64,000 bases of DNA from an uncultured Ruminiclostridium sp. (GCA_964453275.1 CAYVNT010000002.1:206417-270416); one strand, 5' to 3'. Positions 13,230 to 52,169 are shown, numbered from the stretch's first letter. The notes: generated by a model from the letters alone, not told the origin. Numbers and translations: made by a program.

Positions 13230-13254
13230 AAATGACAGAACAAAACAAAATAAA

Positions 13255-13341: not shown

Positions 13342-13375
13342 GCGTATCGCTTTGATCCGGTCAGATGCGAGATTT

Positions 13376-13404
13376 AGAATAGCATATTCAGACTACTTTG
13401 TCAA
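13376..13404 (-). promoter_or_regulatory. Sigma-A promoter of the tRNA-Ser pair
   Basis: TTGACA-17 nt-TATTCT with extended TG. Confidence 0.8.
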
Positions 13405-19668: not shown

Positions 19669-19875
19669 AACGACGCCCCCAAAAAAGTTTTGTGTCCGAC
19701 CAGCATTTTCCTGATCCAACACCTATTAAATGATAAGTAGCAAAAGTATATCAAATTATGTCGAAAAAAACAACTGTTAGAATAAATTTCTTATCACTTT
19801 CCCTTTTTTCGCTTTAATTGAACGTGTAAACCATCTCTGATTCGTCAAAACAGCACACGAATCTGTCGGATTTTG

Positions 19876-19951: not shown

Positions 19952-21457
19952 ATGAGCGATCTAAAAAAGCTGACCAACGAAGTGGGCGCACCCGTTGCCG
20001 ACAACGAACACGCCATCACTGCCGGTCCGAGAGGCCCGGTTGTCATGCAAGATGTCTGGATGATGGAAAAAATGGCCCATTTCAACCGTGAAGTCATCCC
20101 CGAACGCCGCATGCATGCCAAGGGCTGGGGCGCCTACGGCACCTTTACCGTCACCCACGACATCTCTCGTTACACCAAAGCAAAGGTTTTGCAACCGGGT
20201 AAAAAAACAGATCTTTTCGTCCGTTTTTCTACCGTGGCAGGTGAACGCGGCGCCGCCGACTGTGAACGCGATATCAGAGGCGTTGCTGTGAAATTCTACA
20301 CCGAGGAGGGCAACTGGGATCTGGTCGGCAACAATACCCCTACCTTCTTCATTCGCGATGTCCATAATTTCGCGGACCTGAACCGTGCGGTCAAGCGCGA
20401 TCCGCGGACCGGTCGCCGCTCCGCACAAAATAACTGGGATTTTTGGACCTTGCTGCCGGAATGCTTCCATCAAATCACCATCGTTATGAGTGATCGCGGC
20501 ATCCCTGCCTCCTTCCGTCAGATGCACTTCTTTGGCGAACATACCTTCTCTTTCTACAATGAAAAAAATGAGCGTGTCTGGTGTAAGTTCCACTTTAAAA
20601 CCCAGCAGGGCATTCAGAACCTGTCCAATGAAGAAGCGGCAAACATCAACGGTATGGACAGAGAACATCATGGCAAGGATTTATATGAGGCCATTGAAGC
20701 CAAAAACTTCCCCAAGTGGACCATGTATGTGCAGATCATGACCGAAGCGCAAGCCAAGCAGCATCATGAAAACCCCTTTGATATCACCAAGATTTGGCGT
20801 CACGCAGACTATCCCCTGATTGAAGTTGGTGTGTTGGAGTTAAATCGCAATCCCGACAACTACTTTGCCGAAGTGGAACAGGCTGCTTTTACCCCTGCTC
20901 ACGTGGTGCCCGGCATCGGTTTCTCGCCGGATCGCTTTTTGCAAGGCAGACTCTTTGCCTACGGCGATGCACAACGCTACCGTCTTGGCGTCAACCACAA
21001 TCAAATCCCCGTGAACCAAGCAAAATGCGCAGTCAGCGACTATCACCGTGATGGCGCCATGCGTGTGGACGGCAACTACGGCGGCGCACCTGCGTATACC
21101 CCAAACAGCTACGGCGCATGGACCGCCCAGCCCGAGGTGATGGAACCCCCGCTGGATTTGGACGGGGCCATGTATCGCTATGATCCAAAGGACGATCCGA
21201 GCGATGACTGTTTCCGCGCCGGCGGAGATCTGTGGCGTATTCTCACCGAGGATAAAAAACAGATTCTCATTGACAATACTGCCGGCGACATTGCCCCATG
21301 CACAGAGAATATCAAATATCGTCACGCCGTACACTGCTACTTGGCGGATGAAGAATACGGCAAACGCTTTACCGCGGCAGCAGGTTTGGACATGGACAAA
21401 GTGGTGACCTTATCCAAGTTGGATCACAACGGTCTCATCGCCGCCACCATGCCCTGA
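19952..21457 (+). CDS. katA: Monofunctional heme catalase
   Basis: [45 protein letters not shown]. Confidence 0.97.
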
Positions 21458-22860: not shown

Positions 22861-22892
22861 ATGCACTTTGGATGCACTATTTGCTGTAAAAT
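22861..22892 (+). promoter_or_regulatory. SARP-type activator-dependent promoter candidate
   Basis: ATGCACT-N4-ATGCACT-N8-TAAAAT. Confidence 0.55.
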
Positions 22893-23016
22893 ATACGGTA
22901 ATGATAGGCAATTACCCAGTTGGGTTCGGCTGCCGATGGTCAAATCTTGGCAATCGCGCAGTCGTTCTATCGCGTACATAACGTCATTTTTTGAAGAGAT
23001 GGAACGGAGGAACTTT

Positions 23017-37379: not shown

Positions 37380-37967
37380 CTATTTTTGATTTTGCGCAGC
37401 GGCCATCAGCACGGGCGGGAGTGAGGTGCGAATAAACATCGCTATATGCTCGGACGTGATATAGCTGACTTCACGGTTGCTTTTTGCCTGGATCCATTCG
37501 ACAAGCATGCCGGCAATCGCTTCGGTATACACGAGGGTAAGAAATCTTTCGTAGTCTTCTTTGATCGTGATGCCAAGCTTTTGTGCGCCAAACTTCAACT
37601 GTGTGCCGATTACCTTATGGAAATCAGCGACAAAAAATCGCTTTAGACCTTCTCGGCCAATGCCATCTAAGGCACAGTTTAAAATATGTTTATTCTCTGC
37701 CACATACTGCATGACAAACTCAATGGCATCCTCTAAATTCAACAGCAGATCAAAATTTTGAACGACCTCAATGACGTCTTGTTCCAGCATCCATTGCAGC
37801 AGTGCATAGATATCTTCAAAATGATAATAAAACGTTTTTCTGTTCAAGTTGCATGCTTCGATGAGCTCACGAACAGTTACTTTAGAGATGACCTTTTCGG
37901 TCATCTTTTTTTTCAGAGCATTCGCAAGGGCAAGCTTTGTCTGAAGCGCTTTTTCTTCTTGTTTCAT
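37380..37967 (-). CDS. TetR family regulator (TetR_C_8-like C-terminus)
   Basis: VTVRELIEACNLNRKTFYYHFEDIYALL. Confidence 0.9.
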   Translation of the reverse strand: MKQEEKALQTKLALANALKKKMTEKVISKVTVRELIEACNLNRKTFYYHFEDIYALLQWMLEQDVIEVVQNFDLLLNLEDAIEFVMQYVAENKHILNCALDGIGREGLKRFFVADFHKVIGTQLKFGAQKLGITIKEDYERFLTLVYTEAIAGMLVEWIQAKSNREVSYITSEHIAMFIRTSLPPVLMAAAQNQK

Positions 37968-38125
37968 ACGGCCACCTCCATGATGAAAAGTATACCACGC
38001 TTGTCCGGTCATTGCAAACGCCCATCAATGTGATATCTTTTGTCCGGTTTTACTCATTCGCATGATATTTGACCGTTTTTTTCCCCTCCGCACTGCCGTA
38101 AGATGTGTGCAAAGGAGGGGTTCCA

Positions 38126-38518
38126 ATGAAAAGCGGCACTTATTGCTATCGCATTGAATTGATTGCCCCATTGGGCCCCAGACACGGCGAAATGAACATC
38201 CAACTGACCGGAAACGAACTGTCCGGCGTGTTCGCCATTCTTGGCAATACCAGCGCATTCACACATGGTCGTTATGAGAGCGGAAACATTGCCATCCACG
38301 GAGCACTCAAAACGCTGCTGTACGACCTTCCCTATGCGCTGACTGGCAAGATGGATGAAGATGTCGTTTGTTGTAAACTGCAAACGTCCAAGGGCGTTCT
38401 TTCCATGTCCGGAACAAGGATGTTTCGCCATCCTCAAACAGCAGAGCGGCAAAACAAACAAATCGTTACTAAGAAAGCAGGTAAGCAGCATCATGATGGA
38501 ATACACCAAAAAAATTGA
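38126..38518 (+). CDS. Hypothetical small beta-rich protein
   Basis: GGAGG RBS; G-x-Y...APLGP...LSG...G.I.I.G pattern; overlaps the next gene. Confidence 0.65.
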   Translation: MKSGTYCYRIELIAPLGPRHGEMNIQLTGNELSGVFAILGNTSAFTHGRYESGNIAIHGALKTLLYDLPYALTGKMDEDVVCCKLQTSKGVLSMSGTRMFRHPQTAERQNKQIVTKKAGKQHHDGIHQKN

Positions 38519-39479
38519 TTTCCAGTCGCATTTTCTCTCACCGGCATATTATGAATTTCTGGAGAGCGAGGGCCTGGAAAAACCGGACGGCTTCACCACG
38601 CCGGACTGGGACTTGGAGACACAACTGGAGAATATGGAGACTTTGGGGATCGCGTTTGCGTTTTTGGAGCTTTCTTCACCGGGACTCTACACGGCACAGA
38701 AAGAGAAAACGCTGCGGTATGCCCGCCGTATCAATGAAGAAGCGGCAGAGTATGTTTCCCAACAACCCGAGCGTCTCGGTTTCCTCGCAACGCTCCCGCT
38801 TCCATACATGGCGGACAGCATGACAGAGGCCGTTTACGCGCTGGATACCTTACATGCGGACGGGATTGGCATGCTGACCAACAGCGGCGGCGTTTACCTG
38901 GGAGACCGGCGGTACGACGATTTGATGAAAGAGCTGGACAAACGGAGCGCGTTGGTTGTCATCCACCCCACTACGCCGGCGGTCAGCGTTCCGCATGTCT
39001 GCGAGGATCTCAGCATTCCCGCCATGGAGTTCTTTTTCGAGACCACACGGGCCTTCACCAACATGGTGCTCAAGGACACCTTTGCGTGCTTTCCCAACAT
39101 CAAATGGGTGGTCCCCCATGCGGGCGCGTTCCTCAGTATTCTGGCAGACCGCTTCGAGTCATTCGCGGTCATGCTGCGCATGGAGGACCAGGACCGCCGC
39201 GCCGATTTGATGGCGGATATGCGCCATGTTTACTATGACGTCGCGGGTTTTTCCGAGAAAAAACAGTTGGAGCTGCTACTCAAGAACGTAGACGCCAGCC
39301 ATCTGCTCTATGGCTCCGACGCACCGTATACCGACATTTTTGCCTGCATGCGGCAAGCGGAGGCCCTGGAACAGACAGAAAAGCTGACCCACGAGCAAAA
39401 GCGGATGTTATTTACAGAAAACGCGCTGGAACTGATGCCACGTCTTAAAAAACTTACATTTTCGGGAGGTCGTGCGTGA
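38493..39479 (+). CDS. Amidohydrolase family 2 (ACMSD/aromatic decarboxylase-like)
   Basis: IDFQSH, RINEEAAE...PERLGFLATLP, VIHP, HAGAFL, LYGSDAPY. Confidence 0.88.
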   Translation: MMEYTKKIDFQSHFLSPAYYEFLESEGLEKPDGFTTPDWDLETQLENMETLGIAFAFLELSSPGLYTAQKEKTLRYARRINEEAAEYVSQQPERLGFLATLPLPYMADSMTEAVYALDTLHADGIGMLTNSGGVYLGDRRYDDLMKELDKRSALVVIHPTTPAVSVPHVCEDLSIPAMEFFFETTRAFTNMVLKDTFACFPNIKWVVPHAGAFLSILADRFESFAVMLRMEDQDRRADLMADMRHVYYDVAGFSEKKQLELLLKNVDASHLLYGSDAPYTDIFACMRQAEALEQTEKLTHEQKRMLFTENALELMPRLKKLTFSGGRA

Positions 39480-39796
39480 TGCAGACGGTCATTGAAACCA
39501 AGAAATTTGAAGCTAAAATCAAAAGTCCCATGGGACCCATCAAAGCTTATGTGGAGCTTAGCATGTATTCCGAAACTGCATTCGGCGGTACGGCGAAGCT
39601 GCTGGGCCTCACTGTCCCCTACGAAAACGGCAAGGTGAACGGGAGCAACTATCAGCTTGGGGTTCAGGTGAAGCTGCCGTTTGGAGAGCTGCCGGTGGAT
39701 GTGGACATCAATTTAGCCGCCGATGGAACCATCACGGGCTGGGCTTATGCCCCCAAGCATAAACCCATGAAAATAGAAGGAGCGCAAGTGAAATGA
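39476..39796 (+). CDS. Hypothetical small beta-rich protein, distant paralogue of 38126..38518
   Basis: IKSPMGP...FGG...ENGKVNG...DGTITG; GTGA coupling to both neighbours. Confidence 0.65.
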   Translation: MMQTVIETKKFEAKIKSPMGPIKAYVELSMYSETAFGGTAKLLGLTVPYENGKVNGSNYQLGVQVKLPFGELPVDVDINLAADGTITGWAYAPKHKPMKIEGAQVK

Positions 39797-42258
39797 GTGA
39801 GCACAATCGGAAAAAGCAAGATGGTGGTGTCATTATCAAGGCCGCGACCTTTATTGTGGATAAACGCAACTTGTTTTTTCTGTTGCTCATCATCGCCATC
39901 GTCTTCTCCGCCTTTTCAAGCCGCTGGGTTCATGTGGAGAACTCCTTGTCGGCTTACCTGCCGGACGATACCGAGACCAGAGTGGGACTCGACATCATGG
40001 AGCAGGAATTTGTGACCTTTGGCACAGCCGATGTCATGGTCGCCAACGTCTCCTACCCGCAAGCGGAGGAAATTCTTCAAAAGCTGGAGGCGGTGCCCGG
40101 TGTATCCGGCGTCACCTTTGACCAAACCGCCGACCACTTCACAAACGCCAGCGCCCTCTACCATATCACCTTTGCTTATGATGAACAGGAGGACGCCTGT
40201 CTCACTGCGCTCGACGCCGTAAAGCAAACCCTCGCCGGGTACGACCTCTATGTCTCCACCACGCTGGGTGACACGCTCTCGGAAACGATTGCCAACGAGA
40301 TGCAGCTTATCATCGTCATTGTGGGTCTCCTGGTGGTAGGCATTCTCTTACTGACCTCGGAGACTTATGCCGAAGTGATCGTGTTACTGGCGACCTTTCT
40401 CTCCGCTGCCATCATCAACATGGGAACCAATTTCCTCTTTGGCACCATCTCCTTTGTCTCAAACTCCGTCACCATAGTGCTGCAGCTGGCGCTGTCGATT
40501 GACTATGCCGTCATTCTGTGTAACCGCTTTAAGGAGGAGCACGAGACCCTGCCCACCCGTGAGGCGGTCATTGTGGCCCTTAGTAAGGCCATCCCCGAAA
40601 TTTCGGCCAGCTCCCTCACCACCATAGGCGGCCTGACGGCCATGACCTTCATGCAGTTTAAAATCGGCGTGGATATGGGCATCGTTCTCATCAAAGCCAT
40701 TATTTTAAGCCTGCTTGCCGTCTTTATCATCATGCCGGGACTTCTGGTCCTCTTTAGTAAGCTGATGGATAAAACGAGGCACAAAAAGCTCATCCCCCCT
40801 ATCCCCTTTGTGGGAAACATCGCATACAAAACACGCTTGATTGTCCCGCCCATATTTTTGGTCCTGGCCATCGCCGCATTGTTGATCTCCAACAAGTGCC
40901 CCTATGTATACGGTTACAGCCAGCTGACCACACCGGTTCAGAATGAATCCCAAATTGCCGAGCAGATGATCAAGGATAACTTTGGCAAGGATAATGTGCT
41001 TGCCATGATGGTGCCGGTCGGCGACTATGACGCGGAGCGACAGCTCCTTGCCGAACTGGAGGCGCAGCCCGAGCTGGATTATGCCACGGGCTTGAGCAAC
41101 ACCGAGGCGATGGACGGATACATGCTGACCGATAAGCTCAACCCGCGCCAGTTTGCGGAGCTGACAGACCTCGATTATGAGGTGGCCGAGATGCTCTATG
41201 CCGCCTATGCAGTAGACGATGAGAGTTATGCGAAAATTCTCAATGGCCTGCCCACCTATGGCGTACCGCTCATAGATATGTTTATGTTCCTTTATGACGA
41301 GGTGCAGGAGGGGTATATCACCCTTAAACCGGAATTGCAGGAGACGCTGGACGATGCCTATGTACAGATGCGGGACGGTCGCGTGCAACTGGAGGGCGAA
41401 CATTACAGCCGCATCCTCATGTCAGTAAACCTTCCCCAGGAGGGTGCGGAGACCTTTGCATTTCTTGACGAGCTGCATCAAATAGCGGGCAAATACTACC
41501 AGGGCGCGGTTTACCTCGCAGGAGACTCGACCAGCCAGTATGACCTATATCACTCCTTCCAGCAGGATAATACAGTGGTAAACGTGGTCTCCATTCTCAT
41601 TGTCCTGTCGGTGCTCCTGTTCACCTTCAAGTCGGCGGGCATGCCTGTCCTGCTGATCATGGTCATTCAGGGCAGTATCTGGCTCAATTTCTCCTTCCCG
41701 GCATTGACCCAGTCTCCGCTCTTTTTTATGAGCTACCTCATCGTCTCATCAATTCAGATGGGCGCGAACATCGACTATGCAATCGTCATCTCATCCCGAT
41801 ACATGGAGCTGTCAGAACAGATGTCACCGAAAAAAGCCATGATAGAGACGATGAACCTCTCCTTCCCAACCATTATCACCTCCGGATCCATGCTTGCTCT
41901 TGCAGGCCTCCTGATCGGCCAATTGACCTCGGAGGCGGCCATCGTGGGGATTGGGCAATCCCTTGCCAGAGGGACACTCATCTCCTTAGTCCTAGTCATG
42001 TTCATTTTGCCACAGCTGCTGCTGTTCGGAGATAGAATTATCCGCAGAACCTCATTTTCTGTCAAGCTTCCGATGCCCACACGCAGCGCGGCAGGCGGGT
42101 TTGTGCGTGTGGATGGACGCATCCATGGTCAGGTATCAGGAACAATCACCGGCACCGTTCACGCAGTCATCAAAGGCCAAGTGGATGCCTTTGTGCAATC
42201 AGGCGAAGTGAAAGAAATCGAAGCACCGGCAGAACAGGAGGATACCGATGAAACATAG
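39793..42258 (+). CDS. MMPL/RND family transporter
   Basis: LQLALSIDYAVIL...F.EE, ISASSLTTIGG, IQMGANIDYAIVISSRY; two-lobed 12-TM layout. Confidence 0.92.
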   Translation: MSEHNRKKQDGGVIIKAATFIVDKRNLFFLLLIIAIVFSAFSSRWVHVENSLSAYLPDDTETRVGLDIMEQEFVTFGTADVMVANVSYPQAEEILQKLEAVPGVSGVTFDQTADHFTNASALYHITFAYDEQEDACLTALDAVKQTLAGYDLYVSTTLGDTLSETIANEMQLIIVIVGLLVVGILLLTSETYAEVIVLLATFLSAAIINMGTNFLFGTISFVSNSVTIVLQLALSIDYAVILCNRFKEEHETLPTREAVIVALSKAIPEISASSLTTIGGLTAMTFMQFKIGVDMGIVLIKAIILSLLAVFIIMPGLLVLFSKLMDKTRHKKLIPPIPFVGNIAYKTRLIVPPIFLVLAIAALLISNKCPYVYGYSQLTTPVQNESQIAEQMIKDNFGKDNVLAMMVPVGDYDAERQLLAELEAQPELDYATGLSNTEAMDGYMLTDKLNPRQFAELTDLDYEVAEMLYAAYAVDDESYAKILNGLPTYGVPLIDMFMFLYDEVQEGYITLKPELQETLDDAYVQMRDGRVQLEGEHYSRILMSVNLPQEGAETFAFLDELHQIAGKYYQGAVYLAGDSTSQYDLYHSFQQDNTVVNVVSILIVLSVLLFTFKSAGMPVLLIMVIQGSIWLNFSFPALTQSPLFFMSYLIVSSIQMGANIDYAIVISSRYMELSEQMSPKKAMIETMNLSFPTIITSGSMLALAGLLIGQLTSEAAIVGIGQSLARGTLISLVLVMFILPQLLLFGDRIIRRTSFSVKLPMPTRSAAGGFVRVDGRIHGQVSGTITGTVHAVIKGQVDAFVQSGEVKEIEAPAEQEDTDET

Positions 42259-45200
42259 AGGAAAAATGATCAGCTTCATGATGGCGTGTGTCCTCTGCGT
42301 CGGCTTGGCAGTTCCCGCCTTTGCGGCGGATCCGGCACCCATTGTTTCCATTGACAACACGGAGGATTTTTTAGCATTTGCGAAAAACTGCACCTTGGAC
42401 ACTTGGTCGCAAGGCAAAGAATTTAAGCTCACCAGCGACTTAGACCTTGCAGGGACTGATTTTGTGTCAATCCCTACCTTTGGCGGAACCTTCGATGGAC
42501 AGGGCCATACCATAAAAGGATGGTCGGTTTCCCGCAGCATTTCTCAGACCGGTTTTTTTGGCATTGTGCAGCCGGGTGCCGTGATCAAAAACCTACAAGT
42601 CACCGGAAGCATTGTGCCTGCGGGCACGCAGGATGTCCTGGGTGGGATTGCGGGGACAAACTACGGCACCATCCACAATTGCAGTTTCACCGGAACCGCA
42701 AAGGGCAACAGCATGGTTGGCGGGATCGTCGGAAACAATGAAGCGAGCGGCGTGATCACCGGATGCCGTGCCTCCGGCATCATATCCGGCACCCATTTCA
42801 CAGGCGGTATCGTCGGCCTCAACAGCGGCAGCGTTTTGAACTCCATCAATGAAAGCGCGGTGAATACGGACTATGTGGAAGTGCCGGTTAGCCTTGAGGA
42901 TATGGAAATTGACTGGGCGCGCCTGAACTCCACGGAAAATGCCCCCGCCCATACCGACACCGGGGGCATCAGCGGGTATTCCACAGGCTCCATCGAGTCC
43001 TGCACCAACAAAGGTGCTGTTGGCTATCCACATGTCGGCTACAATGTGGGCGGTATTTCCGGCCGGCAATCCGGGTATATGAACGACTGTGTCAACAACG
43101 GAACCATAAATGGCCGAAAAGATGTAGGCGGTATTGTTGGGCAGATGGCCCCAGACATCAGCCTGAAGTTCAGCCAGACCAGCATCCAGACGCTGAAGGA
43201 CGAATTGAACACGCTACATGGACTGTTAGGAAAAATGCTCGATCATTTGGATTCCTCCTCCAGCCAAGTTTCCTCGGAGCTGACCACGGCATCGGGATAT
43301 TTGGATGCCGCACGGGATAGCGCCGGTAGCATCAATCATCAAATCACCGGTTTTGTGGATGAAAACATCAGCGCCGTCAACGATTTGACCGCTCTCATCC
43401 AGAAGTATACCGGCCAATTGCCAACAATCCTCACAGAGTTGGAGAACGCGGCGACGGCCGCTTCACAGGCATTCTCGGAATTTCAAGAGGGCGCTGCGCA
43501 GCTCAATGACCTCATAGCACTATCCGATGATGCTATCGGTGATTTGCAGAGAGCGGTTTCCAATTTGCGTCAGGCGTCTACCTACCTTGGCGCCGGGATA
43601 ACAGAAGTCAAAGCCACCGTTGACACCCTCACCAAAGACCGGTATCTGCCTGATCTGTCTGCCGAAATGAAGCAGCTACAGCTCGATGGCGCGGCATTTG
43701 CCGATGCGATCGAACGCTTCGCGGTCATCGTTGAAGAAGCAACAGCGGAATATGAGGCAGCCGGCACCATCAGTCCCGCGACTCTCGAAACGCTTCTCCA
43801 GTCACTGACTGATGTAACGACAAATGCCTCCACCGTGGCAGCAGACCTGGACGCCATCATGCAAAAAATAGATTGGACCCTTGTCGGGCAAGAAGCGGAG
43901 AACTTACAAGGTGATGTACAAACGGCCCTGCGTCATTTGTCGCAGACAGTGAACTACTTTTCCAATGCTTTTGACGAAATAGACAGTACCCTTTCAGAAA
44001 TGTCCTCCTTCTTCACACATCTGGAGGAAGCAAACCGTTCCATTGGTCCGATTGTGGACCGAACGCAGTCAGCGCTCCAATCGCTTGCATCAGCATCAAA
44101 TGACCTGTCCAGCACAGTCAATTTGCTGAGCCAATGGGCGGCGGACCTCGCCGGGGAGGACGAAATCAAGTTTCAAGGCCTGGGAGATGATTACACACAG
44201 AACGCAGAACGCCTGAACGCTGCCTTGACCGGACTTTCCGGCTCCCTATCCTCGCTCAACAGTACACTCAGTGCATCCAGCGATACGCTCATCAGCGACC
44301 TTCGCGCTGTCAACAACCAGTTTATGGTGGTCATGAATCTGATGCTCGATGTTTATACCGACGTTGGCACTGCCGAACTGAGTCGTGAAAACTATTATGA
44401 AGACATCTCCGACGAGGATATTTATGAAAAACGCGAGGGTAAGGTAGTCGGCTGTAAAAACCTTGGCGCAGTGTACGGAGACGTCAATGTAGGCGGTGCA
44501 GCAGGCTCCATGGCAATTGAGTATGACCTCGACCCGGAGGATGATATCTCCGCCAACGGGAACCGTTCCTACGACTTTAAATACCAGACCAGAGCGATTC
44601 TGCTCGAGTGCGTGAACTCAGCCGATGTAAGCGCCAAAAAAGACTATGCAGGCGGCATGGTCGGACGAATGGATTTGGGGACAGTCTACTACAGCGAGAA
44701 CTATGGCTTTATCTCCAGCACCTCAGGTGATTACGTGGGCGGCATCGCAGGACAGTCTCTCTCATCCATTCGCAAGTCCTTTGCCAAGAGCTTTCTGTCC
44801 GGACGCAGGTATGTGGGCGGCATCGCAGGGCAAGGCAAGGACATCAGTGGATGCTACACGCTGGTCAAGGTGCGAGAAGATGCGCAAAACGTTGCCGCCA
44901 TTACCGGTGATGCCACGGGAACGCTCTCAGGCAACTACTTTGTTTCGGATGACCTTGCGGGTGTGGATAGAGTGAGTTTATCAGAGAAAGCTGAGCCCAT
45001 ATCCTATGAAGCCCTGATTATGGCAGAAGGGATTCCTGATCGATTCAAAAGCCTGTCTATGATTTTCATGGCGGATGATGCTGTGGTAAAAACGCTTTCC
45101 ATCCCATACGGAGAAACCTTAGAGCAGTCCCTTGTGCCCGATGTTCCCTCCAAAGAAGGCTACTATGGGCAGTGGAGCAGGACGGATTTCACCAACCTGA

Positions 45201-45673
45201 GATTCGATGACGTCGTTGAGGCCGTTTACACAAGGTATTGCACCACACTGGCAAGCAGCGCGCTGCGCAACAATGGACAGTCTGTGATTCTTGTTGACGG
45301 ACAGTTCTCTCAGGATGAGGCGATTACCACCACACAAGGAGACGTCAGGGATGTCCCGCTGGCTAATATGGACGAATATTGGCGTCTTACCATGCCCGAG
45401 GACACAGAAACGCAGCACACCATCCGCTACCAGCCCCTAAACGGAAACCCTAAGAAAACAAGCATTTACCTGTATTCTGATGGACAGTGGAACAAGGCAG
45501 ACACCGAAATCATGGGGCGCTATCTGCTCCTGTCCGCAGACGGAACCGAGGTGCAGCTTGCAGTGAAGTCGCCGGAACAGTCCCATTGGCTGCTCGTCAC
45601 GGTTGGCGCAGGTGCCACACTGCTGGCGCTTACGCTCGTCCTATGGCGGCGGAGAACAAGACAGAACGCTTGA
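42248..45673 (+). CDS. Membrane-anchored GLUG-motif protein with a central long helical/coiled-coil region
   Basis: Signal peptide; repeated V-G-G-I-x-G motifs at both ends; Ser/Ala/Leu heptad-rich core; C-terminal TM plus RRR. Confidence 0.85.
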   Translation: MKHRGKMISFMMACVLCVGLAVPAFAADPAPIVSIDNTEDFLAFAKNCTLDTWSQGKEFKLTSDLDLAGTDFVSIPTFGGTFDGQGHTIKGWSVSRSISQTGFFGIVQPGAVIKNLQVTGSIVPAGTQDVLGGIAGTNYGTIHNCSFTGTAKGNSMVGGIVGNNEASGVITGCRASGIISGTHFTGGIVGLNSGSVLNSINESAVNTDYVEVPVSLEDMEIDWARLNSTENAPAHTDTGGISGYSTGSIESCTNKGAVGYPHVGYNVGGISGRQSGYMNDCVNNGTINGRKDVGGIVGQMAPDISLKFSQTSIQTLKDELNTLHGLLGKMLDHLDSSSSQVSSELTTASGYLDAARDSAGSINHQITGFVDENISAVNDLTALIQKYTGQLPTILTELENAATAASQAFSEFQEGAAQLNDLIALSDDAIGDLQRAVSNLRQASTYLGAGITEVKATVDTLTKDRYLPDLSAEMKQLQLDGAAFADAIERFAVIVEEATAEYEAAGTISPATLETLLQSLTDVTTNASTVAADLDAIMQKIDWTLVGQEAENLQGDVQTALRHLSQTVNYFSNAFDEIDSTLSEMSSFFTHLEEANRSIGPIVDRTQSALQSLASASNDLSSTVNLLSQWAADLAGEDEIKFQGLGDDYTQNAERLNAALTGLSGSLSSLNSTLSASSDTLISDLRAVNNQFMVVMNLMLDVYTDVGTAELSRENYYEDISDEDIYEKREGKVVGCKNLGAVYGDVNVGGAAGSMAIEYDLDPEDDISANGNRSYDFKYQTRAILLECVNSADVSAKKDYAGGMVGRMDLGTVYYSENYGFISSTSGDYVGGIAGQSLSSIRKSFAKSFLSGRRYVGGIAGQGKDISGCYTLVKVREDAQNVAAITGDATGTLSGNYFVSDDLAGVDRVSLSEKAEPISYEALIMAEGIPDRFKSLSMIFMADDAVVKTLSIPYGETLEQSLVPDVPSKEGYYGQWSRTDFTNLRFDDVVEAVYTRYCTTLASSALRNNGQSVILVDGQFSQDEAITTTQGDVRDVPLANMDEYWRLTMPEDTETQHTIRYQPLNGNPKKTSIYLYSDGQWNKADTEIMGRYLLLSADGTEVQLAVKSPEQSHWLLVTVGAGATLLALTLVLWRRRTRQNA

Positions 45674-45736
45674 GTGTCAGCTCTTGTGTCACGGCATCAT
45701 GGATTGATGAAACGGCAAATATGTCACATTAACAAT

Positions 45737-45772
45737 AATGGCAGCAAAGTTAATTTAAACTTTGCTGCCATT
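45737..45772. terminator. 15-bp perfect hairpin at the boundary between host-like and AT-rich DNA
   Basis: AATGGCAGCAAAGTT-N6-AACTTTGCTGCCATT. Confidence 0.7.
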
Positions 45773-46093
45773 TCTGCGTCATCACATGATAGTGTTGTTC
45801 TATGTTCCGATATCAGTGGGTTCACGGCCTATTGTCTACTTTTACAGGAGCGCTTCCTATTTGGACGGCTTAAAATTTTTAATTTTTATTTTGTGATATT
45901 TTATTATTTTATCCGTTACTATAGTATAAACAAATTTAGTCATAATTCATTTTCTCAAACGAAAACAAAAAAACAAGAAGCAAGGATTGTTTCCAAATTT
46001 CAATTGTGGGTTAATTGCAATAAAATCCTTAATATATTTTCCAATGTTTGGGAGTGAAATGAATCTAAATGCTTCCATTATGTCGTAGGTGAG

Positions 46094-46444
46094 TTGGATA
46101 ATACAGTGCAAGTAGTAAATTCAACATCAAAAATGGACTTTGGCGCTAATTTTATTACTATTACTGTTGGAGCTATCGTAAGCATCTTGACGGGTGGTTT
46201 TAGTTCTTGGGTTGCTGCTGGTGCTGGCTACCTGTCATCCGCTTCTATGAATTCAATTGCGAACTGGCTAAAGAATACAAATCCATATTATCAGTATGCA
46301 TCTTTTAAGGATATCAGAAATGCGCGTGCCAATAACAATCTAGTTTATTATTATAAACATTCCGTGTATGCATGGAATAAGCGTGATTATGACGGCAACA
46401 AGTACTTGGTTGAAACTTATTACCAAGCAGATTATCCACGGTAA
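46094..46444 (+). CDS. Hypothetical, possibly 5'-truncated bacteriocin/toxin-like protein
   Basis: Gly/Ala-rich hydrophobic helix pair then a Tyr-rich tail; weak TTG start, with the frame open back to 46058. Confidence 0.5.
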   Translation: MDNTVQVVNSTSKMDFGANFITITVGAIVSILTGGFSSWVAAGAGYLSSASMNSIANWLKNTNPYYQYASFKDIRNARANNNLVYYYKHSVYAWNKRDYDGNKYLVETYYQADYPR

Positions 46445-46454
46445 GGAGTAAAAC

Positions 46455-46706
46455 ATGAACTTTATCCTATCTCTACTTGTGTTCGTTGTATTATACTGGT
46501 TGCATTTGACTGCAGTGAAAAAAAATTATTGGGGATTAGCTATTGCTGAATACACGATCATCCTTTGTCTGGTTATAGTTAATGAATGTATTTGGAAAAA
46601 TCATGAGTTAATTTTTATCAGCTATACGACCGCTTTTGTTTTCTTAGGTGCAGGCGGAGCAACTTTGATTATGTCATTTATCAAACGCAAAGATAAAAGC
46701 AGATAG
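46455..46706 (+). CDS. Small 3-TM membrane protein (immunity-like)
   Basis: AAGGAG RBS; hydrophobic helices with a basic C-terminal tail. Confidence 0.65.
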   Translation: MNFILSLLVFVVLYWLHLTAVKKNYWGLAIAEYTIILCLVIVNECIWKNHELIFISYTTAFVFLGAGGATLIMSFIKRKDKSR

Positions 46707-46783
46707 GATAGTAGCAACAAATCTGTATCTAAACTTTCTATTCATTCCTTTGGAGCGTGAAATCCAGAGTTTGAATCACTAAT

Positions 46784-46818
46784 AAAAACCCTTGAGGCAC
46801 TGCGTCTCGAGGGTTTTT
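46784..46818 (+). terminator. Intrinsic terminator
   Basis: AAAAACCCTTGAG-N9-CTCGAGGGTTTTT. Confidence 0.8.
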
Positions 46819-46853
46819 ATGTTTGAAGTTTCTTCTTTGTGGTCTTATCATAT

Positions 46854-46964
46854 ACCATGGACACCTACAGTCACCTTTACCCAAGCAAGCAGGCGGAGGT
46901 TGCCACCAAGCCGGACATACTCATGGGAACGGTAGCCGATCCGCAAATTGTAGCCAATTTGTAG
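46854..46964 (+). pseudogene. C-terminal remnant of a tyrosine integrase (not in the ORF track)
   Basis: Manual translation TMDTYSHLYPSKQAEVATKPDILMGTVADPQIVANL*, containing the catalytic-Tyr TYSHLYP motif. Confidence 0.8.
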
Positions 46965-47025
46965 CCAACAAAAAGAAAAATCCTTGCAAACCCGCATAAA
47001 TGCAAGGTTTGCAAGGACATAAGAC

Positions 47026-47037
47026 TTATTCCCATTC
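47026..47037 (-). repeat. att-like copy of the guaA 3' terminus
   Basis: GAATGGGAATAA (EWE*) versus GAGTGGGAATGA at 50880-50891, 10/12 identical. Confidence 0.7.
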
Positions 47038-47161
47038 GCTCTTTGTGAGCGCAATCTAAACGGTTTTGTTTAGACGATTAAGCTGACAATATTCTGATTA
47101 CTTTGGTTATCCATAGAGTATGGGCTGTCTAAGTTTTTTGTTGCCATTGTGTTGCCGATAA

Positions 47162-48352
47162 TTAAGTCCTAGTATTTTCTAGTGCGAACATTTTTACAGT
47201 AATGAAAAGAGTTCTCCAGTGCCCTTTATCTTTGCCAACGGATTGAGGATTGTTCCCTAAAGTTCTACTGCGCTCAACAGTTGTGCAGACTAGCTCCTTC
47301 CCTAAAACTTCCATAACCAAAAAAGGATCATGCGTCCACCGATAATAACCATCATCGCCGATTTCAATTAGTGCTCTAAAAGCGCCAACAATTGGATATA
47401 AAAAACCCGTAGGCGTCAGAAAATCCATCTCCTGTTGATAAAATTTCGAGACGTTCTTAGCTCTATTTGCTTCTCCGACCACACCTTTAACTCTACCATA
47501 GCGTCCACCTTGACTACCATCGTAGTAATACTCGCCGATTTTAGTTTCTAACTTATTATAAAGCTTAAAAACATCTATAATCAAGGGTATCATTTTTACA
47601 TATGGATTTTGGATTGTTTCACCAAAAACTTTGTGCATTTTTATATAACGCTCAGTGCACTTGGCTCTTCCGGAATATGATTGTGTCGGATATGTTTCTG
47701 TTTGTGAGTTTGGATATTCGTCTAGATTAAAAAGATTTAATATTGCTAAGATCTCTGTGATGTCTATTTCCCCATTAGTATTTTCTTTATAGGCAATACG
47801 ATCCATCATTTTTGGTTCGTTTTTTAGTACATTTTTAATAATGTCAAATCGATCTTCTAATTCAGCAATTGATTGTTCACGAACTTGAACAGAAGTATTT
47901 CTTGCTGCTGCAAGTTGAGAAAAAATGTCTTCAACTCCTGTAAGAATTTCAATTTTGACAAACTGTGTTCCAGGTGTAATCTTATGTTTAAGTTCTTTTA
48001 TGATACGATACGTGTGCCCGCCATCAATGTTTCCGTGAATTTCTTCATCAGTAAAGACAATTGTCAGTTCATTATTGGAATTATTGTAAATTACTTTTTC
48101 TGCTGAAAGCACGAGACCACGATTCAAAAGGTAAAAATTCTTTTCTGCCTCTGCTTCCAAAGACTGCTTAATTCTTTTAGCCACACTAGTTCCCAGATTT
48201 TGCTCGCGTGGATTAGTTTGCATGGGGATGTCAGTTGGAATTTCGGTTACATCACAGATAGCAAAATATGTTTGTGCTGAATCATCTTTAGCATCGGGGT
48301 AAGGGTTAGGTAGTTTGCGAAATGCACTCACAATAAAAGTTGTTTTTGTCAT
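47162..48352 (-). CDS. AIPR family (abortive infection phage resistance) protein
   Basis: TNPRE, FYLLNRGL, NIDGGHTYRII, AAARNTSVQV; AT-rich. Confidence 0.8.
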   Translation of the reverse strand: MTKTTFIVSAFRKLPNPYPDAKDDSAQTYFAICDVTEIPTDIPMQTNPREQNLGTSVAKRIKQSLEAEAEKNFYLLNRGLVLSAEKVIYNNSNNELTIVFTDEEIHGNIDGGHTYRIIKELKHKITPGTQFVKIEILTGVEDIFSQLAAARNTSVQVREQSIAELEDRFDIIKNVLKNEPKMMDRIAYKENTNGEIDITEILAILNLFNLDEYPNSQTETYPTQSYSGRAKCTERYIKMHKVFGETIQNPYVKMIPLIIDVFKLYNKLETKIGEYYYDGSQGGRYGRVKGVVGEANRAKNVSKFYQQEMDFLTPTGFLYPIVGAFRALIEIGDDGYYRWTHDPFLVMEVLGKELVCTTVERSRTLGNNPQSVGKDKGHWRTLFITVKMFALENTRT

Positions 48353-48482
48353 AATGGTTTTCCTTTCTTTTTTACAAATTACGTGTAATTGTGTAGATAC
48401 GTGATTTGACTCACCATCTATTTTCTAGTATAATATGGATATTAGAAATAATCAATAATCACTTTTGATTAGAGGATATGAC

Positions 48483-48632
48483 ATGGATAAATATGAACGT
48501 GAGTTTTGCATCAAATTTGCCAGCAGATTAAAAGCTTTACGCAATAATGAAGGAATGACTCAAAAAGAATTTTCAGATGCCTGCGGCATATGTATTCCTG
48601 CATTTCTGTGCAGAGAAAGCCGGGCATTTTGA
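48483..48632 (+). pseudogene. Truncated XRE/Cro HTH gene fused to antisense integrase DNA
   Basis: MDKYEREFCIKFASRLKALRNNEGMTQKEFSDACGI, then an abrupt switch at about 48590. Confidence 0.7.
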
Positions 48633-49374
48633 CAATCCGATTGCTTTTTGGTGTCTTGGGGTCTGTGATAACATCCTCTCCCAAAAGCCGCTGATAGGAC
48701 TTGCTGATGGCAACCGTACTTTTCTCAAAGTCAAAGTCCGCAGGGGTGAGGGCTAAAAGTTCACCCAGCCGAATGCCGCACCAGTAGAGCATCTGAAAGG
48801 CATAGTAGGAAAGGGGCTTGTCCATCATCACCTCGGCAAATTTTTTGTACTCATCTTTCGTCCAAAACAGCATTTCCTTGCCCTGCCTTTTTCCCATGTT
48901 GCCAGCCTTTGCCGCTGAATTGGATTTCAGCTCATAAAACCGCACCGCATGATTTAGAATGGCAGAAAGCTGATTGTGCAGTGTTTTGAGATAGGTTTCT
49001 GAATAAGGATTGCCCTTTTCATCCCGATAACCAATCATTTCATTTTGCCACTGGATAACATCCGCTGGGCGAATGTCGTTCATCCGCTTGCCCCCAAAGG
49101 AGGGGAGCAGCTTTGTTTCAATGATGTGCTTTTTCGTCTGCCAAGTGTTGCGGCGCAACCGTACCTCCATGTCTTTTGTATAAACCTCCACAAAGCTGGA
49201 AAAGGTCATATCCAAGTTGGAGGCTTTTTGCTGCTGGAAGGTACGCTCCCATTCCAGCGCCTCACGCTTGGTCTTAAACCCTCGTTTCATTTTCTTTTCC
49301 TTTTGCCCCCTCCAATTTTCATAGTAAAAGGCGGCGTACCATGTTCCTTTTGCGTTGTCTTTGTATGCTGGCAT
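48511..49374 (-). pseudogene. Tyrosine integrase, C-terminally truncated
   Basis: Arm-binding N-terminus (KRGFKTKREA), CGIRLGELLAL, PKTPKS; HxxR and catalytic Tyr are missing after EMQEYI. Confidence 0.88.
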
Positions 49375-49385
49375 TTTGTTCCTCC

Positions 49386-49574
49386 TTACTGGCTGCTGCG
49401 CAGTCCATAAAATTTTTCCTCGTAATACTGGCGGCTTACCCGCCCGGCGATGGTCATAAAGCCTTTACCCTTTAATTCTTCGTTCATTTTCCGCACCAGC
49501 TTGTAGGCATAGGGCTTAGAAACGCCCAAATTCTTTGCAATCTCCTCCACTTTGATAAACAGCTCTTTCTTCAT
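49386..49574 (-). CDS. Excisionase-like HTH protein
   Basis: VEEIAKNLGVSKPYAYKLVRKMNEELKGKGF..IAGRV; directly upstream of int. Confidence 0.85.
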   Translation of the reverse strand: MKKELFIKVEEIAKNLGVSKPYAYKLVRKMNEELKGKGFMTIAGRVSRQYYEEKFYGLRSSQ

Positions 49575-49595
49575 CGTATCAAACCGCCTTTCTTT

Positions 49596-49652
49596 ATTAG
49601 CATATTTGTTAATGTTACCGTATCCTTAGTATACATTATCATATTTGTTAAT
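49596..49652. promoter_or_regulatory. Two 18-bp imperfect palindromes (probable repressor operators)
   Basis: ATTAGCATATTTGTTAAT (49596) and ATTATCATATTTGTTAAT (49635) between divergent xis and XRE genes. Confidence 0.75.
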
Positions 49653-49740
49653 GTCAAGTGTTTATTTCGCTTTTTTGTTAATTTTTATCTTGCATCTTTC
49701 GCTTTTTTGCGCTATACTATTCTCAAAGGCGGTGGAACAG

Positions 49741-50319
49741 ATGACAATAGGTGAGAAAATTAAGAAAATCCGTACCTTTCGTGGCATGACACAAAAGGAG
49801 TTCGGCTTGGCAATCGGGCTGGAGGAGAAGGGCGCCGACAACCGTATTGCCCAATATGAAACCAACTACCGTATTCCCAAGAGGGATATGCTGGAGCAGA
49901 TGGCGGCGGTGCTGCGTGTCAGTCCGATGAATTTTTACAGTGATGCCCCGGACTGCGCCGAGGACATCATGCAGACCTTTTTTTGGCTGGACGAGGATAA
50001 CCCCGGCGCTATCAATCTGTTTCAGCTTGTGCGCAACTCCGGCAAGACAAATGCCTCTGATGATACCTCTGTGCGCTACAACGACAATGACGATTGGCCT
50101 GCCCATGCCCCTGTGGGGATGTACTTCAAGTATGGACTGGTTGATCAATTTATGAAGGAATGGCTGCTGCGCAAAGAGGAACTAAAGGCTGGCAGTATCA
50201 CTCGCAGCGAATACTTCGAGTGGAAATTAGGCTTTCCGCAGACCTGTGATGATTGTGGAAGGCAAGAACCTTCGGTGCAGTGGAGGGAGGTACGCCATGA
50301 GGATGCCCAGAGCGATTGA
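49741..50319 (+). CDS. XRE family repressor of the integrative module
   Basis: MTIGEKIKKIRTFRGMTQKEFGLAIG...RIAQYETNYRIPK. Confidence 0.9.
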   Translation: MTIGEKIKKIRTFRGMTQKEFGLAIGLEEKGADNRIAQYETNYRIPKRDMLEQMAAVLRVSPMNFYSDAPDCAEDIMQTFFWLDEDNPGAINLFQLVRNSGKTNASDDTSVRYNDNDDWPAHAPVGMYFKYGLVDQFMKEWLLRKEELKAGSITRSEYFEWKLGFPQTCDDCGRQEPSVQWREVRHEDAQSD

Positions 50320-50707
50320 CACCGCATTCTTTGCCCCCTGTGGCATGAACTGCATGGTCTGCTATAAGCATTGCTACATGAAAAAGCCTTGTGCCGGGTG
50401 CTTGCCGGGTGATGAGGGCAAGCCGGAGCATTGCCGCAAGTGCAAAATTAAGGATTGTGTGCAGGAAAAGGGGCTTACATATTGCTATGAGTGCGATACC
50501 TTTCCCTGCAAGCTGATTAAAAATCTAGAGAAAAGCTATAACCAACGGTATGGCGCAAGTCTGATGGAAAACAGCCTATTCGTGAAAGAGCATGGGCTAA
50601 CCTCCTTTATGAAACAGCAGTTAGAGCGTTATACCTGTCCTAGCTGTGGCGGCGTGATTTCACTCCACGATGCCGAATGTAGCGAGTGCCAAACCAAAAC
50701 AAAGTAA
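50297..50707 (+). CDS. DUF3795 family Cys-rich protein
   Basis: APCGMNCMVC, CAGC, CRKCKIKDC, YCYECDTFPC, CPSCGG...CSEC. Confidence 0.85.
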   Translation: MRMPRAIDTAFFAPCGMNCMVCYKHCYMKKPCAGCLPGDEGKPEHCRKCKIKDCVQEKGLTYCYECDTFPCKLIKNLEKSYNQRYGASLMENSLFVKEHGLTSFMKQQLERYTCPSCGGVISLHDAECSECQTKTK

Positions 50708-50879: not shown

Positions 50880-52169
50880 TCATTCCCACTCAATCGTTCC
50901 AACTGGTTTGGGGGTCAGGTCATATAGGACACGGTTGACGCCTTTTACCTCATTGGTAATACGGTTGGTGATATGAGAAAGCAGGGCAAAGTCGACGGGT
51001 TCGACGGTGGCGGTCATGGCGTCGATGGTATTGACAGCGCGCAGGATAACCGGCCATTCAAAGGTACGCAAATGATCGCGCACACCGACAGAATGGATAT
51101 CAGGGATAGCGGTAAAGTACTGCCAGACCTTACCTTCAAGTCCTGCCTTGGCGAATTCTTCGCGCAAGATAGCATCCGATTCGCGCACAGCCTCCAAGCG
51201 GTCGCGCGTGATAGCGCCGAGGCAGCGCACGCCGAGGCCGGGTCCCGGGAAAGGCTGACGATACACCATCTCCGCAGGCAAGCCCAGCGCGACGCCGCAA
51301 GCACGCACTTCGTCCTTAAAGAGCATTTTAAGCGGTTCCACGAGGGAAAACTGCAGATCTTCAGGCAGGCCGCCAACATTATGGTGACTCTTGACCGCTT
51401 TGACTGTTTTGGTGCCGCTTTCAATGATATCGGGGTAAATGGTACCTTGTGCAAGGAAATCAATCCCCTCGAGCTTACGCGCTTCTTCTTCGAACACACG
51501 GATAAACTCTGCCCCGATGATTTTTCGTTTCTGTTCAGGATCCGCAACGCCAGCAAGCTTGTCCAAAAAGCGATCTACCGCATCGACGTAGACCAGATTA
51601 GCCGCCATCTGATTACGAAACACCTCAACCACCTGCTCCGGTTCGCCCTTACGCAACAGGCCGTGGTTGACATGTACGCAAGTGAGCTGCTTACCAATCG
51701 CCTTGATCAGCAGCGCAGCCACCACCGAGGAATCCACGCCGCCGGAGAGCGCCAGCAGCACCTGACTTTCACCTACTTGACGGCGGATCAGTTCGATCTG
51801 ATCGGAGAGAAAGTTTTCAATGGTCCAGTTTGCTTCCGCCTGACAAGTATCAAAGACAAACGCCGAAAGCGCTTTCTTTCTCGCCGCGTCTTCCGCCGGC
51901 CAAGGTTTTTCGCCCTTGTGATCCACGCAAAGAATCGGCAGCCCACTGTCATACACTGCTTTGCTCGCGTCGATTTCCACCCCATCCACCACACGGTTCG
52001 GGCCACCATTTAAGAGGATGCCACGCACGCCCGGCAGGGCGTTCAATTCCTCTGCGGTTAAATCATGCGGATGAATCTCCGAGTATACACCCAATGCCCG
52101 GATCTCACGCGCAATTTGTGGATTTTGCTCACTACCAAGGTCCAAAATCAGTATCATGTCTTGCTTCAT
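50880..52169 (-). CDS. guaA: GMP synthase homologue with a shortened, degenerate glutamine amidotransferase domain
   Basis: ALSGGVDSSV, VNHGLLRKGE, LAQGTIYPD, KSHHNVGGLP, QPFPGPGL, DLTPKPVGTIEWE; 429 aa, with no GICYG or FHPE motifs. Confidence 0.9.
   Translation of the reverse strand: MKQDMILILDLGSEQNPQIAREIRALGVYSEIHPHDLTAEELNALPGVRGILLNGGPNRVVDGVEIDASKAVYDSGLPILCVDHKGEKPWPAEDAARKKALSAFVFDTCQAEANWTIENFLSDQIELIRRQVGESQVLLALSGGVDSSVVAALLIKAIGKQLTCVHVNHGLLRKGEPEQVVEVFRNQMAANLVYVDAVDRFLDKLAGVADPEQKRKIIGAEFIRVFEEEARKLEGIDFLAQGTIYPDIIESGTKTVKAVKSHHNVGGLPEDLQFSLVEPLKMLFKDEVRACGVALGLPAEMVYRQPFPGPGLGVRCLGAITRDRLEAVRESDAILREEFAKAGLEGKVWQYFTAIPDIHSVGVRDHLRTFEWPVILRAVNTIDAMTATVEPVDFALLSHITNRITNEVKGVNRVLYDLTPKPVGTIEWE

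Follow-up and report, generated by a model that had tools for sequence, protein, structure and literature searches.

What does an MMPL-family pump carry when its gene is coupled to that of a large GLUG-motif surface protein and stands behind those of an amidohydrolase and two small barrel proteins, and are all these genes one system? The question is raised by positions 37,380 to 45,673 of a 64,000-nucleotide (nt) stretch of DNA from an uncultured Ruminiclostridium sp. (GCA_964453275.1, CAYVNT010000002.1:206417-270416). In this stretch, hereafter the window, from the first letter of which all positions are counted, a TetR-family regulator gene is divergent from five open reading frames (ORFs), namely ORF1 (small barrel), ORF2 (amidohydrolase), ORF3 (small barrel), ORF4 (MMPL) and ORF5 (GLUG). 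On the evidence of gene linkage, the MMPL-GLUG pair is the conserved core and the five genes together are not the unit of evolution, the amidohydrolase and ORF3 being an optional add-on. As to function we propose, with slightly less than even confidence, that the whole is a TetR-controlled, proton-driven machine for the export or detoxification of a hydrophobic compound, with a new extracytoplasmic partner and an optional enzyme.

The MMPL-GLUG pair as the conserved core

A scan of the GTDB representatives (one genome per species) with a GLUG alignment as the query found a relative in at least 591 species. Our neighbourhood counts were made in the best 80 of these species loci, 78 of which have upstream DNA, and neighbours in the 78 were detected by tblastn with the window proteins and with divergent copies. 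The best 80 loci are mostly from Oscillospiraceae and Lachnospiraceae, with one locus each under the labels Ruminococcus, Blautia, Butyrivibrio, Lawsonibacter, Anaerotignum, Oceanirhabdus and Tissierellales; a further two, labelled Anaerovibrio and Bacteroides, may be mis-binned contigs. Cultured bacteria that have the core pair are Lawsonibacter hominis NSJ-51, Hominifimenecus microfluidus, Anaerotignum lactatifermentans DSM 14214 and Parablautia muri. The MMPL gene is immediately 5' of the GLUG gene in all 78 loci, and in 77 the first ATG of the GLUG frame precedes the MMPL stop codon, with modal overlaps of 8 and 14 nt. A first-pass annotation, made from the window sequence by itself, had suggested that the GLUG protein is the extracellular partner of the MMPL. 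The pair is an obligate one at the genomic level, and the signal peptide and C-terminal anchor of the GLUG protein agree with the suggestion. The two proteins would work as one machine, to judge from the constant adjacency of their genes, the overlap of the frames, the strong ribosome-binding site inside the MMPL gene, the co-variation in length class and the joint decay.

The enzyme has a different distribution. The amidohydrolase and ORF3 are present in just two of the 78 MMPL-GLUG loci (L015 and L016), and a clustering of the flanking ORFs gave no recurrent partner in these loci beyond the TetR and ORF1. The five-gene operon described in the annotation is thus real as a layout but is not a conserved unit, since other versions of the locus differ. 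One of them (L007) has a divergent TetR, the MMPL, a GLUG protein of 1387 amino acids (aa), an unknown protein of 237 aa, and only then the amidohydrolase and a barrel. In Faecalibacterium (L009) the TetR-MMPL-GLUG set is followed by an alpha/beta hydrolase and a SnoaL protein, and in L010 the same set has no enzyme. L094 has the amidohydrolase and barrel between the divergent TetR and the MMPL-GLUG pair, and L092 has a TetR divergent from a barrel-amidohydrolase-barrel trio without a pump. Two further features were seen in L007: the long-form GLUG locus is preceded (L007 1-5700) by a serine recombinase, a SocA_Panacea protein and three unknown genes, and the 237-aa protein (L007 14178-14891) has an apparent N-terminal hydrophobic segment.

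The enzyme and the pair are nevertheless found together outside the window. The same six-gene order was recovered by exact-protein look-up in an abundant Oscillospiraceae species (L001-L004; GLUG identity 41%), and it recurs in Clostridium sp. NkU-1 (L005/L006; GLUG identity 74%), which indicates that the arrangement is not random. The annotation's proposal of a linked system implied that the enzyme genes and the pair should keep company elsewhere, and they do so, in the same order, in distant Clostridia. In the reverse test, from the enzyme side, a metagenome scan with an ORF3 alignment gave 26 loci with at least 800 bp of downstream DNA, of which 23 have an MMPL (intact or remnant), one has a GLUG remnant only and two have neither. 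Several metagenome loci (L102-L104 and L118-L122) carry an intact barrel-amidohydrolase-barrel trio followed by a frame-broken or internally deleted MMPL and by just 140-220 aa of GLUG, a pattern that appears to indicate decay of the pump pair in lineages that have kept the trio; the multi-frame cases L108, L110 and L114 may be assembly errors.

Organization of the proposed operon

All six genes were confirmed in the window. The TetR gene (37380..37967, minus strand) is separated by a divergent control region (37968..38125) from the plus-strand genes ORF1 (38126..38518, 130 aa), ORF2 (38493..39479, 328 aa), ORF3 (39479, or GTG 39476, to 39796; 105 aa), ORF4 (39793..42258, 821 aa) and ORF5 (42248..45673, 1141 aa). 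Consecutive overlaps from ORF1 to ORF5 are 26 nt, 1-4 nt (TGATG), 4 nt (ATGA) and 11 nt. Ribosome-binding sites precede ORF1 (AAAGGAGGGG), ORF3 (GGGAGG), ORF4 (GAAGGAG) and ORF5 (AGGAGG), the last of these lying within the 3' end of the MMPL gene, 6 nt from the ATG. The overlapping, divergently transcribed arrangement noticed in the first-pass annotation is therefore borne out by coordinates, overlaps and the genes' own ribosome-binding sites, and we infer from it that the five genes are translationally coupled and form one operon. No convincing terminator above the shuffled background was found inside the operon. A perfect 15-bp hairpin (45737..45772), 64 nt beyond the GLUG stop codon, is a candidate for the end of the transcription unit and for the start of an unrelated low-GC island. 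A search for sequencing runs holding the window sequence found no RNA run, the matching runs being DNA gut metagenomes only.

The pump and its surface partner

ORF4 matches Pfam MMPL (PF03176) with 116 bits against a cut-off of 20.5, in two stretches that correspond to the two halves of the protein. Its PDB matches also fall in both halves (residues 144-366 and 573-748) and are distant, to MmpL5, MmpL4 and MmpL3, with E ~1e-7 to MmpL4/MmpL5; matches to the NCBIfam HAE3/actII subfamilies are under cut-off, and those to HpnN and MmpL3 are weak. Two Asp-Tyr pairs, D237-Y238 (LALSIDYAV) and D661-Y662 (QMGANIDYAI), are at least 95% conserved among 69 family members from the fetched loci. They would correspond to the Asp-Tyr proton relay of transmembrane segments 4 and 10 of MmpL3, and the intactness of the relay argues that ORF4 is a genuine transporter. 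Of the two extracytoplasmic domains the second is the larger, by ~100 aa, and looks helical by eye; a helical insert lies at residues ~440-520. The cytoplasmic tail (42100-42258, residues ~770-821) has a Gly-spaced repeat, GRIHGQVSGTITGTVHAVIKGQVDAF, and then an acidic end; the Gly-spaced part (~770-805) resembles the beta-strand repeats of bactofilins and is weakly conserved in the family.

In ORF5 the Pfam Glug motif (PF07581) scores 34.1 bits against a cut-off of 20.5, in two stretches that an AlphaFold2 model places in two beta-helices, and there are many weak coiled-coil-type matches in Pfam and NCBIfam. The model was built from 54 sequences and has a mean predicted local distance difference test score (pLDDT) of 79.9. 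It consists of an N-terminal signal helix (residues 4-25), a beta-helix (30-308, pLDDT >90), a region of ~390 aa with about ten helices of 25-50 residues each (313-704, pLDDT 55-87), a second beta-helix (717-900, pLDDT >90), two beta-sandwich-like domains (936-1107), and a transmembrane helix (1114-1140) that is followed by the basic tail RRRTRQNA. The signal peptide and C-terminal membrane anchor lead us to regard ORF5 as a type-I anchored, extracytoplasmic protein. Its homologues form more than 6000 clusters, mostly full length at 1120-1180 aa, with a subgroup at ~1270-1410 aa, and the few that are named are called 'GLUG motif-containing protein' or 'hypothetical protein'. The long forms carry an insertion of ~240 aa in the middle of the helical region, which fits a predicted arrangement in which a helical bundle projects between the two beta-helix halves. 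The most conserved stretches border this region, GYPHVGYNVGGIAGRQSGY...GRKDVGGIVGQM.P on its N-terminal side and MAIEYD.DPEDD on its C-terminal side. Among their residues His, Arg, Lys, Asp and Glu are found invariant, a hint that the base of the bundle may hold a functional site. Neither a PDB sequence search with ORF5 nor a Foldseek search with the full model gave a significant match, the Foldseek results being generic long helices with a template modelling (TM) score below 0.1. A role in anti-phage defence was considered on the basis of PADLOC and rejected: residues ~300-680 match only coiled-coil parts of ZorA, LmuB, JetC and DruC, and PADLOC gave no match and no partner component among the other five proteins of the cassette.

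The amidohydrolase and the small barrels

ORF2 is an Amidohydro_2 protein (ACMSD/COG2159-type TIM barrel) that matches Pfam PF04909 with 84.9 bits against a cut-off of 26.4, over profile positions 32-286 of 289. Its nearest structure, matched end to end (residues 6-315, E 1.2e-65), is PDB 2F6K, an uncharacterised 'metal-dependent hydrolase' for which our literature search found no functional study. A profile made from eight module copies reaches the uncharacterised 3IJ6 and then LigW2, IDCase, ACMSD, the LigJ hydratase and the gamma-resorcylate, 2,3-dihydroxybenzoate and salicylate decarboxylases, with E-values to characterised members of 1e-15 to 1e-7. The link to aromatic decarboxylases and hydratases that the annotation had drawn is thus the one that the profile recovers. 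H13, H158 (HPT), H209 (PHAG) and D276 (GSD.PY) are invariant in the eight copies, and the HP, PHAG and GSD.PY motifs are common to ORF2 and 2F6K; the ACMSD family has an N-terminal HxH (or ExH), a third His, a catalytic His and a C-terminal Asp as metal and catalytic residues, and these four may be among their counterparts. The first position of the N-terminal HxH motif is Gln in seven of the eight copies and His in 2F6K. Our guess, by analogy with these relatives, is that the substrate of ORF2 would be an acid, which it would decarboxylate non-oxidatively, hydrate or hydrolyse.

Neither ORF1 nor ORF3 matches a Pfam or NCBIfam family. An AlphaFold2 model of ORF3 from 58 sequences (pLDDT 92.6) has eight consecutive antiparallel strands in an up-and-down barrel, without a signal peptide or membrane helix. 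Foldseek searches of the PDB with this model returned generic small ligand-binding barrels only (TM 0.5-0.66, best E 1e-3), among them the barrel domain of hemophilin, designed ligand-binding barrels, CRABP/FABP and fHbp/NHBA; matches in a PDB sequence search were at chance level (all E>=0.07). A single-sequence search gave just five close relatives of ORF3 and an alignment query was therefore used, which found 129 protein clusters, none annotated. In every locus with DNA upstream of ORF3, the amidohydrolase is the gene there. ORF1 has 184 representative relatives (50% clustering, E<=1e-3), nearly all of 95-115 aa, and these lie directly 5' of the MMPL in ~17 of the 78 species loci, where the enzyme is absent. 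Homology between the ORF1 and ORF3 families extends over the full length (hhalign 95.7%, E 8.7e-9; pairwise BLASTP E 0.002), so the 'beta-barrel' label of the annotation holds, as a prediction, for both. The lack of a signal peptide places both barrels in the cytoplasm and speaks against a part in extracellular capture.

The ORF1 of the window has a C-terminal tail of ~24 extra aa (38440-38518), which overlaps the amidohydrolase start by 26 nt. The NkU-1 copy is 106 aa long and ends in QNQTAQ, and the window copy seems to have lost its stop codon and so gained the tail. In L007 (7373-7558, 61 aa) and L010 (7469-7564, 31 aa), which have no ORF1 relative, a short ORF overlaps the MMPL start; both end in VKGEQI and could encode a leader peptide or be a remnant of the barrel gene. 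The ORF3 family has two near-invariant motifs, SPMGW on the N-terminal side and AP.H.PM on the C-terminal side (Met18, Trp20, His94, Met97). This residue set recalls small metal- or haem-binding barrels and may matter, as the partner enzyme is without its first His ligand; a CusF-like metallochaperone, suggested by the conserved Met, His and Trp, is a speculative possibility.

Regulation

The maximal ORF of the TetR gene spans 37380-38012 and its likely start is at 37967 (MKQEEK, giving 195 aa), preceded by GGAGGTGG. The protein has Pfam TetR_N (25.5 bits) and TetR_C_8 (35.9 bits), both over cut-off. It matches the NCBIfam DhaS equivalog TIGR02366 with 87.7 bits, under the cut-off of 129, and the closest solved structures are the DhaS-type regulators PDB 4MK6 and 2IU5; its sequence therefore suggests a relative of DhaS and not an ortholog. 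A TetR relative was detected in ~35 of the 78 species loci, on the divergent strand adjoining the MMPL in 31, and in all enzyme-bearing loci that have upstream DNA.

The control region contains a promoter-like site for the TetR gene (TTGCAA-17-TATACT with extended TG, minus strand, 38017-37989). An alignment of five loci revealed two invariant blocks, TGTC...(G)ACA and TTTGACC.TT, which in the window read TGTCC-N6-ACTCA (38041-38056) and TTTGACCGTT (38068-38077). Oscillospiraceae copies have an inverted repeat of the type TGTCA-N6-TGACA, exact in L001 and L014 and with one mismatch in L015. The palindrome is degenerate in the window, where no inverted repeat of the control region passed the detector. 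We hypothesize that the conserved blocks are the TetR operator.

Horizontal movement and genomic surroundings

A blastn comparison of the window with the NkU-1 locus (L005) gave a single alignment, 37381-45639 against 5136-13389, with 77.5% identity over 8265 columns. The match runs exactly from the TetR stop codon to the GLUG C-terminus and the flanks are unrelated, which shows that the six-gene cassette, from TetR to GLUG, has moved horizontally. In NkU-1 it sits among genes for a relaxase, TnpW, DUF4368 (the C-terminus of a serine recombinase) and TnpV, a Tn4451-like setting. The Oscillospiraceae copies have ParA/ParB, DUF7007 and a helicase protein of 3121 aa after them or, in one strain, ordinary metabolic genes. 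Plasmid carriage was considered and rejected, as the cassette is essentially absent from the plasmid collection, where the search returned one weak partial match only.

In the window the cassette lies between chromosomal genes (TRAP DctM, CoA-transferase and LysR) and the low-GC island (45700-50400), which begins directly after it and has a GC content of 0.37-0.43 against ~0.52. On the minus strand the island encodes an abortive-infection-type AIPR protein (47162-48352) and a short tyrosine integrase (48511-49374) that has Arm-binding and SAM-like domains but only part of the catalytic domain; an HTH_3 protein is encoded at 49645-50319. The island borders on the 3' end of the GMP synthase gene guaA (50880-52169, minus strand) and looks like an element integrated there. 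Elsewhere in the window there are three proteins with SLH domains (2406-6779, minus strand, 1457 aa; 16167-17921, plus strand, 584 aa; 22861-30219, plus strand, 2452 aa), in which no Pfam match was found outside the SLH repeats. The host therefore has an SLH-anchored surface layer, in which the GLUG protein would have to be placed or which it would have to span. The window also encodes a full-length haem catalase (19952-21457), notable in what is presumably a strict gut anaerobe, next to a chemoreceptor (18010-19722, minus strand) that has a CZB zinc-binding domain.

A model of function and its alternatives

In the model that we propose, the DhaS-like TetR, presumably a repressor that is released by a ligand, would control the divergent five-gene operon. 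The MMPL/RND pump, driven by the proton gradient, would draw a hydrophobic or amphiphilic molecule, be it toxic or a lipid, out of the membrane or the cytoplasm. The GLUG protein, made in step with the pump and perhaps in contact with it, would receive, hold or conduct the molecule through the cell-wall zone. ORF1 and ORF3, as paralogous cytoplasmic barrels, may be ligand-binding or adaptor subunits, the ORF1 type serving the pump and the ORF3 type serving the enzyme. The amidohydrolase with ORF3 would alter the same class of compound, most likely an aromatic or unsaturated acid that is decarboxylated non-oxidatively, hydrated or hydrolysed, and would be an optional detoxifying addition in a minority of versions. 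Such modularity, with this enzyme in two of 78 loci and other enzymes or none elsewhere, is as expected of xenobiotic modules. The annotation had proposed that the system captures, modifies and translocates its substrate, a phenolic, bile or lipid-like compound; both the substrate and this order of events are conjecture.

Several observations weigh against this proposal. No RNA run carries the locus sequence, and the export or detoxification role is read from sequence. DhaS is annotated as a transcriptional activator in NCBIfam and the PDB, and it acts via a protein partner, DhaQ, so that a ligand-released repressor is not assured; the TetR relative is, moreover, seen in less than half of the core loci. 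The first metal-ligand position of ORF2 is Gln and not His in most copies, and its nearest structure is uncharacterised. The GLUG protein has no structural relative in the Foldseek search, and a role as conduit or acceptor is a guess, a monomer model being unable to show a channel. Characterised MMPL proteins, finally, mostly export the cell's own lipids and not toxins.

This last point leads to the alternative that survives best, envelope building, although we think it unlikely. Here the MMPL would export endogenous lipids, glycolipids or polymers linked to the wall, in the manner of MmpL3 and HpnN, with the GLUG protein as acceptor or assembly factor and the TetR as sensor of the precursor pool. 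The MMPL-GLUG pair is very widespread and chromosomal, as might be expected of such a function, and the base of the beta-helix, where charged and His residues are invariant, could be a site of catalysis or binding. Overexpression of the staphylococcal pump FarE also releases phospholipid (PMC8844917), which blurs the line between toxin efflux and lipid export. A role in envelope building accords less well with the patchy distribution and mobile contexts of the pair, with its decay to remnants in several lineages and with the variable, catabolic-type accessory enzymes (amidohydrolase_2, alpha/beta hydrolase, SnoaL), and the clustering of flanking ORFs revealed no recurrent lipid-synthesis genes nearby. 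Because of the TetR control, the patchy and mobile distribution, the decay and the exchangeable enzymes, we favour inducible export or detoxification over housekeeping lipid export.

Distinctly unlikely, in our estimate, is the possibility of two independent functions, a cytoplasmic enzyme trio and an unrelated MMPL-GLUG pair joined only by a shared promoter or by hitch-hiking on mobile DNA. The loci can be read in both directions on this point. The trio occurs by itself with a TetR in L092, is lacking from 76 of the 78 pump loci and is placed after the GLUG gene in L007, and the module enzymes are 61-81% identical across lineages whose GLUG proteins are just 35-41% identical, which suggests a separate history; yet 24 of the 26 enzyme loci with enough downstream DNA have MMPL/GLUG or their remnants, the combination has been kept down to ~35-40% GLUG identity, and ORF1-type barrels accompany both sub-modules. 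That the GLUG protein is mainly an adhesin, an S-layer-associated protein, a phage receptor or a defence component, which the MMPL places or energises without transport of a small molecule, we consider very improbable, for its adhesin-like beta-helix and stalk architecture (with a weak Foldseek match to the beta-solenoid of the L. reuteri SRRP), its coiled-coil matches to ZorA, LmuB and JetC models and the mobile and defence-like genes that adjoin the pair are outweighed by its own Sec signal peptide, the confinement of the PADLOC matches to the coiled-coil stretch with no other system component, the full transport-type proton relay of the MMPL, and a TetR control and enzyme add-ons that fit small-molecule handling.

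Within the proposed export or detoxification machine, a more specific structural version can be put forward, which we hold to be doubtful. The MMPL and GLUG proteins would form a two-component trans-envelope machine of monoderm Clostridia, in which the pump docks to a membrane-anchored tower of beta-helices and helical bundle, is fed by the cytoplasmic mini-barrels and has its cargo tailored by exchangeable enzymes. Such a tower would carry hydrophobic cargo across the thick wall and S-layer, and would be to Gram-positive bacteria what the coiled-coil tube of MmpL5 or the AcrAB-TolC duct is elsewhere.

Little is understood of RND/MMPL pumps in Gram-positive bacteria, or of the way in which hydrophobic cargo gets out of the membrane and past the wall. 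The MMPL-GLUG pair is present in gut and rumen Clostridia that include Oscillospiraceae, Lachnospiraceae and Faecalibacterium, and we found no study or solved structure of it. Export by the pair of molecules from diet, host or drugs, or of protective lipids, would, if it occurs, be relevant to the tolerance of dominant gut commensals to bile, plant phenolics, fatty acids or drugs. The cassette also travels on Tn4451-like elements.

Comparison with known systems

A literature search found no paper that mentions GLUG together with MMPL, 'GLUG motif' occurring only in unrelated archaeal papers, and a search on MMPL, TetR and Clostridium found nothing relevant. What appears to be new is an RND/MMPL export system with an obligate extracytoplasmic partner, two families of small barrels, and a subfamily of uncharacterised amidohydrolases whose genes have a constant barrel neighbour.

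The ORF2 enzyme shares with the ACMSD family (COG2159, PF04909; LigW, IDCase, ACMSD, gamma-resorcylate decarboxylase, LigJ) the full-length TIM-barrel amidohydrolase_2 fold. It is only distantly similar to the characterised members (profile E 1e-15 or weaker), has Gln for the first His of HxH, and its gene is always followed by a small beta-barrel gene, whereas no characterised member is known to need such a partner. The barrel itself is like the lipocalin/FABP-like, hemophilin and fHbp/NHBA barrels in its predicted form, eight up-and-down strands in ~100 residues, and differs from them in its lack of sequence similarity and of a helix cap, in TM-scores of only 0.5-0.66, and in its cytoplasmic location.

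Staphylococcus aureus expels antimicrobial fatty acids through FarE, an efflux pump of the RND superfamily (PMC10019231, PMC8844917), the gene of which is divergent from that of the TetR-family regulator FarR (PMC8844917). The likeness lies in a Firmicute RND-type pump, a divergent TetR-family regulator (here in 31 of 78 loci) and, as proposed here, an inducible response to hydrophobic or amphiphilic molecules. No surface partner, small barrel or enzyme is encoded with FarE for its work, while the TetR of the window is DhaS-like (TetR_C_8) and the pump is always coupled to a GLUG protein of 1100-1400 aa.

The MmpS5-MmpL5 and MmpS4-MmpL4 systems of Mycobacterium tuberculosis likewise pair an MMPL pump with an accessory protein encoded beside it, and have a helical structure by which transport reaches beyond the membrane (PMC12501195, PMC12122801, PMC11850643, PMC12346298); they also have a cytosolic protein partner, AcpM, and a dedicated repressor. 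The binding of AcpM by MmpL5 (PMC12346298) makes a cytosolic partner for the MMPL plausible, and the coiled-coil tube of MmpS5L5, which reaches beyond the membrane (PMC12501195), is a precedent for a helical path for cargo. The similarity of ORF4 to MmpL4/MmpL5 is remote, the host appears to be monoderm, and no MmpS-family match was found among the cassette proteins in Pfam or NCBIfam. In the mycobacterial systems the coiled coil is a part of MmpL and the accessory role falls to MmpS, a small protein anchored in the membrane, whereas here the helical region belongs to a separate type-I beta-helix protein.

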